From Shigella phage sb3, in sequence record PQ666541: 64,000 bases of DNA; one strand, given 5' to 3'. Below, in pieces: positions 47,023 to 47,300 of this stretch. The translations under genes and the position numbers were made by a program. How positions within the stretch are numbered: position 1 is the first letter of the stretch; every line of letters starts with the position of its first letter. The notes beneath the pieces are model-generated. The model was given only the letters and a program-made list of their open reading frames with translations. It did not search any database and had not been told where the DNA came from.

Positions 47023-47300
47023 TCAAAATGTAATTTCTAACCAATCACCATCACGCTGATCACTATTGACTTTAAAGCTAAATCCTTCTTTTCTCAGCCA
47101 ATCACCAATTTCTTCAGTAATCAATTTATCGCGAGCAGTACAATAATAACTAAAATATGTTTTACCTTGTTCAGCTGCTTTATTAGCAAGTTCCGAAAAA
47201 TCTTTAATAAAACACTCTAGTTTAAACTGTTTACTTTTAAGTGCTTTTCGCGTAATTGATTAGCAAAAGATTCATTTTCATAAAGATCATACTGTTCCAT
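47023..47300 (-). pseudogene. small ORF at the T4 24.2 position, split by a -1 frame change at a UUUAAAC heptamer (frameshifted gene or programmed frameshift)
   Basis: ATG at 47300, 27 codons, then AGT TTA AAC TAG (stop at plus 47217-47219); the -1 frame is open from the heptamer (plus 47220-47226) for 63 more codons to a TGA at 47023-47025 and contains no ATG. Confidence 0.4.

Follow-up and report, generated by a model that had tools for sequence, protein, structure and literature searches.

Gene 24.2 of phage T4 (NP_049791.1; Y10B, PF26862, phrog_2416) is the described counterpart of the locus analysed here. It is 279 nt long, contains a run of five adenines (A5) and is read in a single frame. 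The copy in the window, by which we mean the whole stretch of 64,000 nucleotides of Shigella phage sb3 DNA that was analysed, shares the position, start and Shine-Dalgarno element of the T4 gene, whereas it is 278 nt long, has only four adenines (A4) and is divided between two frames. Literature searches returned no function for 24.2. Two groups of known systems provide a comparison for such a break. Programmed -1 frameshift sites (A_AAA_AAG in dnaX, those of IS3/IS911, and the G/GT site of the tail-assembly chaperone) combine an X_XXY_YYZ heptamer with a -1 frame that stays open and lengthens the product, and both elements are also present in the window. In T4 itself, the classical rII-type frameshift hot spots lie at homopolymer runs.

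The slippage expected of individual heptamers in bacteria can be judged from the work of Sharma et al. 2014 (PMC4066793), in which all 64 heptamers were tested in E. coli. Without a stimulator, heptamers shifted at 2-10 times a background of about 0.055%, which amounts to at most about 0.5% (PMC4066793). The efficient bacterial motifs require a ZZN codon that is all-purine or all-pyrimidine, and the authors expressly name re-pairing from AAC to AAA as badly tolerated; their list of efficient E. coli motifs includes U_UUA_AAG, whereas U_UUA_AAC is absent (PMC4066793). The shiftiest E. coli tRNA is tRNA-Lys(UUU) (PMC4066793).

Judged by homology and gene order, the window belongs to a T4-like phage (Tequatrovirus), and the locus corresponds to gene 24.2, between 24.3 and rnlB. 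The order 24.3 / 24.2 / rnlB is that of T4, and relatives carry a single 279-nt gene 24.2 in the same gap. The surrounding features are as follows.

44696-45979, plus strand: gp24
46009..47013, minus strand: rnlB (RNA ligase 2; PF09414, PF18043), whose own GAGG Shine-Dalgarno element overlaps the 24.2 stop
47023..47300, minus strand: frame-broken orthologue of gene 24.2 (Y10B family, PF26862, phrog_2416; 278 nt, against 279 nt in relatives)
47287..47502, minus strand: gene 24.3 (DUF2774, HTH-like; PF11242, E=5e-31), overlapping the 24.2 start by 14 nt
47305..47310, minus strand: Shine-Dalgarno-like AAGGTG, read from the sequence, 4 nt 5' of the 24.2 ATG
47604-49022, minus strand: hoc

Sequence homology and the position between 24.3 (DUF2774) and rnlB both place the window copy in the Y10B family. 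The family has a single uninterrupted ORF of about 83-92 codons, whereas the window copy is split into 27 codons and a -1 remainder. With one A restored, the encoded protein is 92 aa long and matches many phage records at 100% identity. The intact orthologue matches phrog_2416 (E=3.6e-41) in an alignment that runs continuously over residues 10-92 and spans the break, and PF26862 (Phage_T4_Y10B, a newer Pfam entry) is tagged on two homologues, the pSs-1 fragment and P0001. The restored protein gave no significant match in sequence searches of Pfam-A (local), NCBIfam, PADLOC and PDB, while a word-indexed homologue search with 24.2 found only three close clusters. An AF2 model built from a shallow alignment was poor (mean pLDDT 59, pTM 0.47) and has the order helix-helix-helix-strand-strand. 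The arrangement of the 24.2 start and its Shine-Dalgarno element inside the end of 24.3 is annotated in the same way in NR1 and T4.

The adjoining hoc region also varies among relatives. Between the hoc stop and the terminator hairpin (47572-47600, around 47585) the window has 13 extra bases, a tandem repeat of the TTATGA/ATCATA type, compared with ECp13 and sb2; pSs-1 and the window show no indel relative to one another there. This 13-base difference beside the GGGGCTTCGGCCCC terminator stem looks like a small repeat-number polymorphism. Hoc (47604-49022, minus strand) comprises 472 aa in the window, pSs-1, sb2, ECp13 and sb4, against 376 aa (1131 nt) in T4. A segment present in it as a near-duplicate (TVNKKTQTTTLAVTPA.PPAGVIGTPV.FTA.LASQP...) points to an additional Ig-like domain. 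The divergence of hoc among relatives is very high, reaching 51 differences per 200 nt.

Within the 24.2 locus, the two frames and the deletion that separates them are laid out as follows.

47217..47300, minus strand: frame-0 remnant of 24.2, with its ATG at 47300, 27 codons and TAG (MEQYDLYENESFANQLREKHLKVNSLN*), from sequence and translation
47245..47248, minus strand: A4 run and site of the 1-nt deletion, CGCG-AAAA-GCAC against CGCG AAAAA GCAC in relatives, from alignments
47220..47226, minus strand: TTTAAAC heptamer, in X_XXY_YYZ register relative to the ORF from 47300
47023..47259, minus strand: open -1 frame, holding the wild-type C-terminal 73-74 residues (KALKSKQFKLECF...LEITF) and a stop

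An earlier note on this DNA had described a 27-codon ORF from 47300 with TTTAAAC in register directly before its TAG, followed by a -1 frame that is open to 47023-47025 and has no ATG, and the sequence bears out both descriptions. The ORF ends AGT TTA AAC TAG, with the TAG at 47219-47217 (minus strand); its residues 1-19 are wild type and residues 20-27 are out of frame. The heptamer, at 47226-47220, has the register of a programmed -1 signal. The -1 frame closes at TGA 47025-47023 (minus strand), with nine bases between this stop and the rnlB ATG (47013). Frames 0 and -1 overlap over 47259-47217 and, since the -1 frame is already open from 47259, any change of frame within this interval joins the two. 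A slip at the heptamer adds 65 sense codons of the -1 frame, and not the 63 originally counted, giving a product of 92 aa. An in-frame TTG at 47124 in the -1 frame corresponds to the 33-aa ORF that GenBank annotates in pSs-1; separate expression of the C-terminal part from this codon is unlikely, because it is preceded by no Shine-Dalgarno element. The heptamer (47220-47227) lies within the palindrome GTTTAAAC, a PmeI site, so that TTTAAAC is present on both strands, with no apparent significance.

The lesion itself precedes the heptamer by about 20 nt. The earlier note had pointed to 47217-47227 as the place to look for an indel, but alignments put the missing A at 47245-47248, where NR1, TB004, FL23, MLP2, sb2, ECp13, sb4 and T4 all have A5 and the window has A4. 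It is a 1-nt difference in the length of a mononucleotide run between orthologues that are otherwise collinear, and the window 24.2 equals that of NR1 and TB004 base for base with the exception of the missing A. A 521-nt query from the window aligned with 513 related records, nearly all of which have 522 nt there. The alignments show that TTTAAAC and TAG are the intact codons TTT AAA CTA GAG (Phe26-Lys27-Leu28, then Glu) read one base out of register. Any upstream 1-nt deletion converts an in-frame XXX YYY Z into X_XXY_YYZ and, going by the aligned codons, the slippery register is a by-product of the upstream deletion.

The intact form of the gene predominates. With the restored protein as a tblastn query, a single continuous piece covering at least 80% of the query was found in 651 of 658 phage records, and in T4 (NP_049791, 279 nt) and about 650 phage records 24.2 is one ORF of about 92 aa. 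Mosigvirus orthologues, at ~53% identity by tblastn, are continuous over the covered residues 8-92; comparison of the equivalent codons (GAA AGG GCG CTG GCC ACT AAA GCT AAT TTG TTG) revealed no A-run, heptamer or frame break in the Mosigvirus orthologue. A 48-nt megablast query specific for A4, in which only A4 carriers have a common 28-nt word, matched pSs-1 only (two records of one genome), while the A5 control matched 397 records. An allele-neutral degenerate pattern retrieved six contigs (two from IMG/VR and four from metagenomes), none with A4 and all with A5; exact 25-26-nt patterns for A4 and for A5 were too strict, each giving zero matches in IMG/VR. The frame break is found in 2 genomes of about 500-650, and the orphan 33-aa tail ORF is called in pSs-1 only.

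The heptamer is not a fixed feature of the gene either. At this position, 13 relatives have TTTAAAC (4), TTTAAGC (8) or TTTAAGT (1), variants that, at the codon level, are synonymous Lys/Leu drift in an intact frame. Carriers of TTTAAGC include T4, pSs-1, sb2, ECp13 and MLP2: in T4 it accompanies an intact 24.2, and in pSs-1 this non-slippery sequence accompanies the frame break. Conservation of heptamer and frame break together was not found among the orthologues compared (658 records, T4, pSs-1 and Mosigvirus). Because the heptamer and the stop pre-exist in hundreds of intact genes, nothing has been shaped after the deletion, and these comparisons show that neither arose or was retained for recoding.

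Other homopolymer differences were encountered in the same small operon. P0003, a 59-aa protein from a single 3.8-kb Logan contig, is another frameshifted 24.2, wild type as far as FIKDF and thereafter in the +1 frame (RNLLIKQLNKV...), as would follow from an indel, genuine or miscalled, within the GATTTTTCGG T-run (about 47196-47200 in the window), probably T5. Since P0003 breaks at a different homopolymer, breaks in 24.2 are sporadic and not bound to one site. In 24.3, FL23 and MLP2 are one A short in TAATAAAAAGG near the 3' end (locus positions about 508-516), so that the end of 24.3 is altered and the overlap with 24.2 is lost.

Our preferred reading, to which we assign a probability of roughly 0.7, is that the window carries a genuine, non-programmed frameshift allele (pseudogene) of 24.2 produced by a 1-nt deletion in a homopolymer. 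Ribosomes starting at ATG 47300 would read 19 wild-type codons, pass the deletion, add eight out-of-frame codons and terminate at TAG 47219-47217; a peptide of 27 aa is predicted as the main product. The wild-type C-terminal 73-74 residues would not be made in useful amount, leaving a pseudogene or null allele, and the deletion would most likely be genuine, the outcome of replication slippage in an accessory gene that the phage can do without. The following gene, rnlB, would retain its own GAGG Shine-Dalgarno element. Since U_UUA_AAC is weak in E. coli and no stimulator is present, any rescue should be at trace level: -1 slippage would yield little full-length protein, at most an expected few tenths of a percent. 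A trace slip at GAA_AAG, where the A is missing, would restore the wild-type protein exactly, while one at U_UUA_AAC by the stop would produce a 92-aa variant that differs at residues 20-27. Some rescue may occur: for a random deletion it is rare (0.06%) that a heptamer directly adjoins the first out-of-frame stop, and a stop adjoining a slippery run can reportedly raise slippage (Weiss et al. 1987). The downstream -1 frame has no further lesions and thus no positive sign of decay, which at this divergence is uninformative. Transcriptional slippage needs runs of roughly 8-9 nt, and a run of 4 nt is far too short for it to restore the missing A.

The allele is already known, being public in GenBank through Shigella phage pSs-1 (KM501444 / NC_025829, pSs1_00188), the record closest overall to the window (97.3% over 24 kb). 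It has the identical A5 to A4 change at the same run, and only the 33-aa tail ORF is annotated there. Unlike the window, however, pSs-1 has TTTAAGC at the heptamer and a G for A 8 nt upstream of the run, so that its allele corresponds to that of MLP2/OBRH plus the deletion and the window allele to that of NR1/TB004 plus the deletion. The flanks are mosaic, and in them the window is not specially close to pSs-1. Both A4 genomes retain GAA AAG. The two genomes owe the deletion either to common ancestry in the pSs-1 lineage or to two separate events at this run; judged from the haplotypes, recurrence at a slippage-prone run appears at least as plausible as descent, and the finding of the deletion on two different local haplotypes hints at recurrence.

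The same comparison bears on the possibility that the phage in fact has A5 and an intact 24.2 and that one A was under-called in sequencing or assembly. Ion Torrent, 454 and Nanopore sequencing typically err in just this way, by a single base in a homopolymer, and the sole other A4 record, pSs-1, comes from the homopolymer-error-prone Ion PGM (PMC4789750). The window 24.2 is moreover identical to intact alleles apart from the missing A, and some public assemblies of relatives, sb4 for instance, plainly contain many errors of this kind. Against this, the window is otherwise clean, with five indels relative to pSs-1 over 49 kb and no other ORF broken, even though that stretch contains 254 homopolymers 5 nt or longer, of which 249 are A/T. 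Three of the indels are not a multiple of 3 (18246 TAATG, 11396/11397 and 10016), and these are at gene junctions or intergenic. The gaps in pSs-1 were also Sanger-checked (PMC4789750). Two independent miscalls at the same one of ~250 runs would be about a 1-in-250 coincidence, which favours a real allele over a miscall. We therefore consider an artefact unlikely, although it is a serious contender.

Two observations were made in passing on these assemblies. In Shigella phage sb4 (PQ666542.1), many essential genes (rnlB, uvsW, gp27, gp28, gp48 and gp24) are annotated in pieces, and this assembly seems to contain numerous errors, frameshifts among them, which makes it unfit as evidence of gene disruption. 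At the junction of genes 5.1 and 5.4 (PAAR), window positions 18243-18248 read TAATG against TAAATG in pSs-1 and ECp13, and both ORFs are unharmed.

A further reading gives the break a function: in pSs-1-type phages of Shigella and E. coli, loss or strong attenuation of 24.2 through A5 to A4 would be recurrent and selected, for example as escape from a host factor sensing gp24.2, with the U_UUA_AAC-TAG 'shifty stop' leaking a low but biologically relevant level of the 92-aa variant. The two local haplotypes and the rarity of a heptamer abutting a stop weakly allow this reading, which we consider highly improbable.

Little can be said for programmed -1 frameshifting at U_UUA_AAC (47226-47220), by which a gene spread over two frames would function through its 92-aa fusion. 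The earlier note had offered recoding or an indel as the two options; the indel has held up, as the A5 to A4 difference from orthologues, while the programmed frameshift has not, given continuous ORFs in 651 of 658 records. The comparison with T4 and relatives that had been proposed to separate the two found a continuous ORF and an unconserved heptamer, which argues against recoding, and the break is confined to 2 of about 500-650 genomes, the others, including T4, having a single ORF. What commends the idea is the correct register, the heptamer abutting the 0-frame stop and a -1 frame that is open without an ATG. The abutment is indeed rare by chance. When every 1-nt deletion was simulated in the window's 54 long ORFs, 6.2% of deletions put an in-register X_XXY_YYZ heptamer before the first shifted stop, and 0.06% put one abutting the stop. 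From the alignments, however, this is an uncommon coincidence that is fully explained by the pre-existing codons TTT AAA CTA GAG, and the heptamer amounts to Phe-Lys-Leu codons that are synonymously variable; the other broken genome, pSs-1, has the non-slippery TTTAAGC. Nor is TTTAAAC enriched in the window, with 19 copies against 25 +/- 5 expected.

The signals that would assist such a site are likewise missing. The caution that had been expressed over the lack of a strong downstream structure was justified: the RNA that follows the heptamer is no more stably folded than shuffled sequences (120 nt, z = -0.38; 60 nt, z = -0.02), and the 94 nt downstream of the A_AAG site give z = -0.74 against shuffles, with no stimulatory structure. 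Reading of the 20 nt upstream revealed no GGAGG- or AGGGAG-like Shine-Dalgarno element. U_UUA_AAC is a motif of eukaryotic ribosomes and poor in enterobacteria; judged from PMC4066793, it is not an enterobacterial shift-prone motif, and motifs without a stimulator remain near background. The fusion would, in addition, swap out residues 20-27 of a conserved protein. We regard programmed frameshifting here as improbable in the extreme.

Equally hard to credit is adventitious slippage as the saviour of a real mutation, in which -1 slips within 47259-47217, proposed for tRNA-Lys on GAA_AAG or for U_UUA_AAC by the stop, would sustain a useful level of 24.2: a slip at A_AAG, where the A is missing, would restore the wild-type sequence exactly, no tRNA of E. 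coli is shiftier than tRNA-Lys(UUU) (PMC4066793) and GAA AAG is kept by both A4 genomes, but no stimulator is present and there is no sign of selection for slippage.

If the break is, as we prefer, a non-programmed frameshift allele, its biological weight is small, since a null or near-null allele here would affect only a small accessory gene. For annotation, the locus is best labelled as a frameshifted 24.2 (pseudo), and neither as two small ORFs nor as a ribosomal-slippage CDS. In AT-rich phage genomes, an in-frame XXX YYY codon pair becomes a 'canonical' slippery site after an upstream 1-nt deletion. Because deletion can turn such pairs slippery, a heptamer at a frame break is weak evidence for recoding unless it is conserved.

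Set beside the described systems, the window copy of 24.2 is unlike the sites in dnaX, IS3/IS911 and the tail-assembly chaperone in that the heptamer and the break are unconserved, no stimulator accompanies them and the orthologues are single ORFs. Its motif is the coronavirus-type U_UUA_AAC, which suits eukaryotic ribosomes and is missing from the efficient E. coli set. The likeness is instead to the homopolymer frameshift mutations of T4, here with the loss of a single A, possibly recurrent, in a non-essential gene of the T4 family, although the run concerned, unlike the rII-type hot spots, is only 5 nt long.
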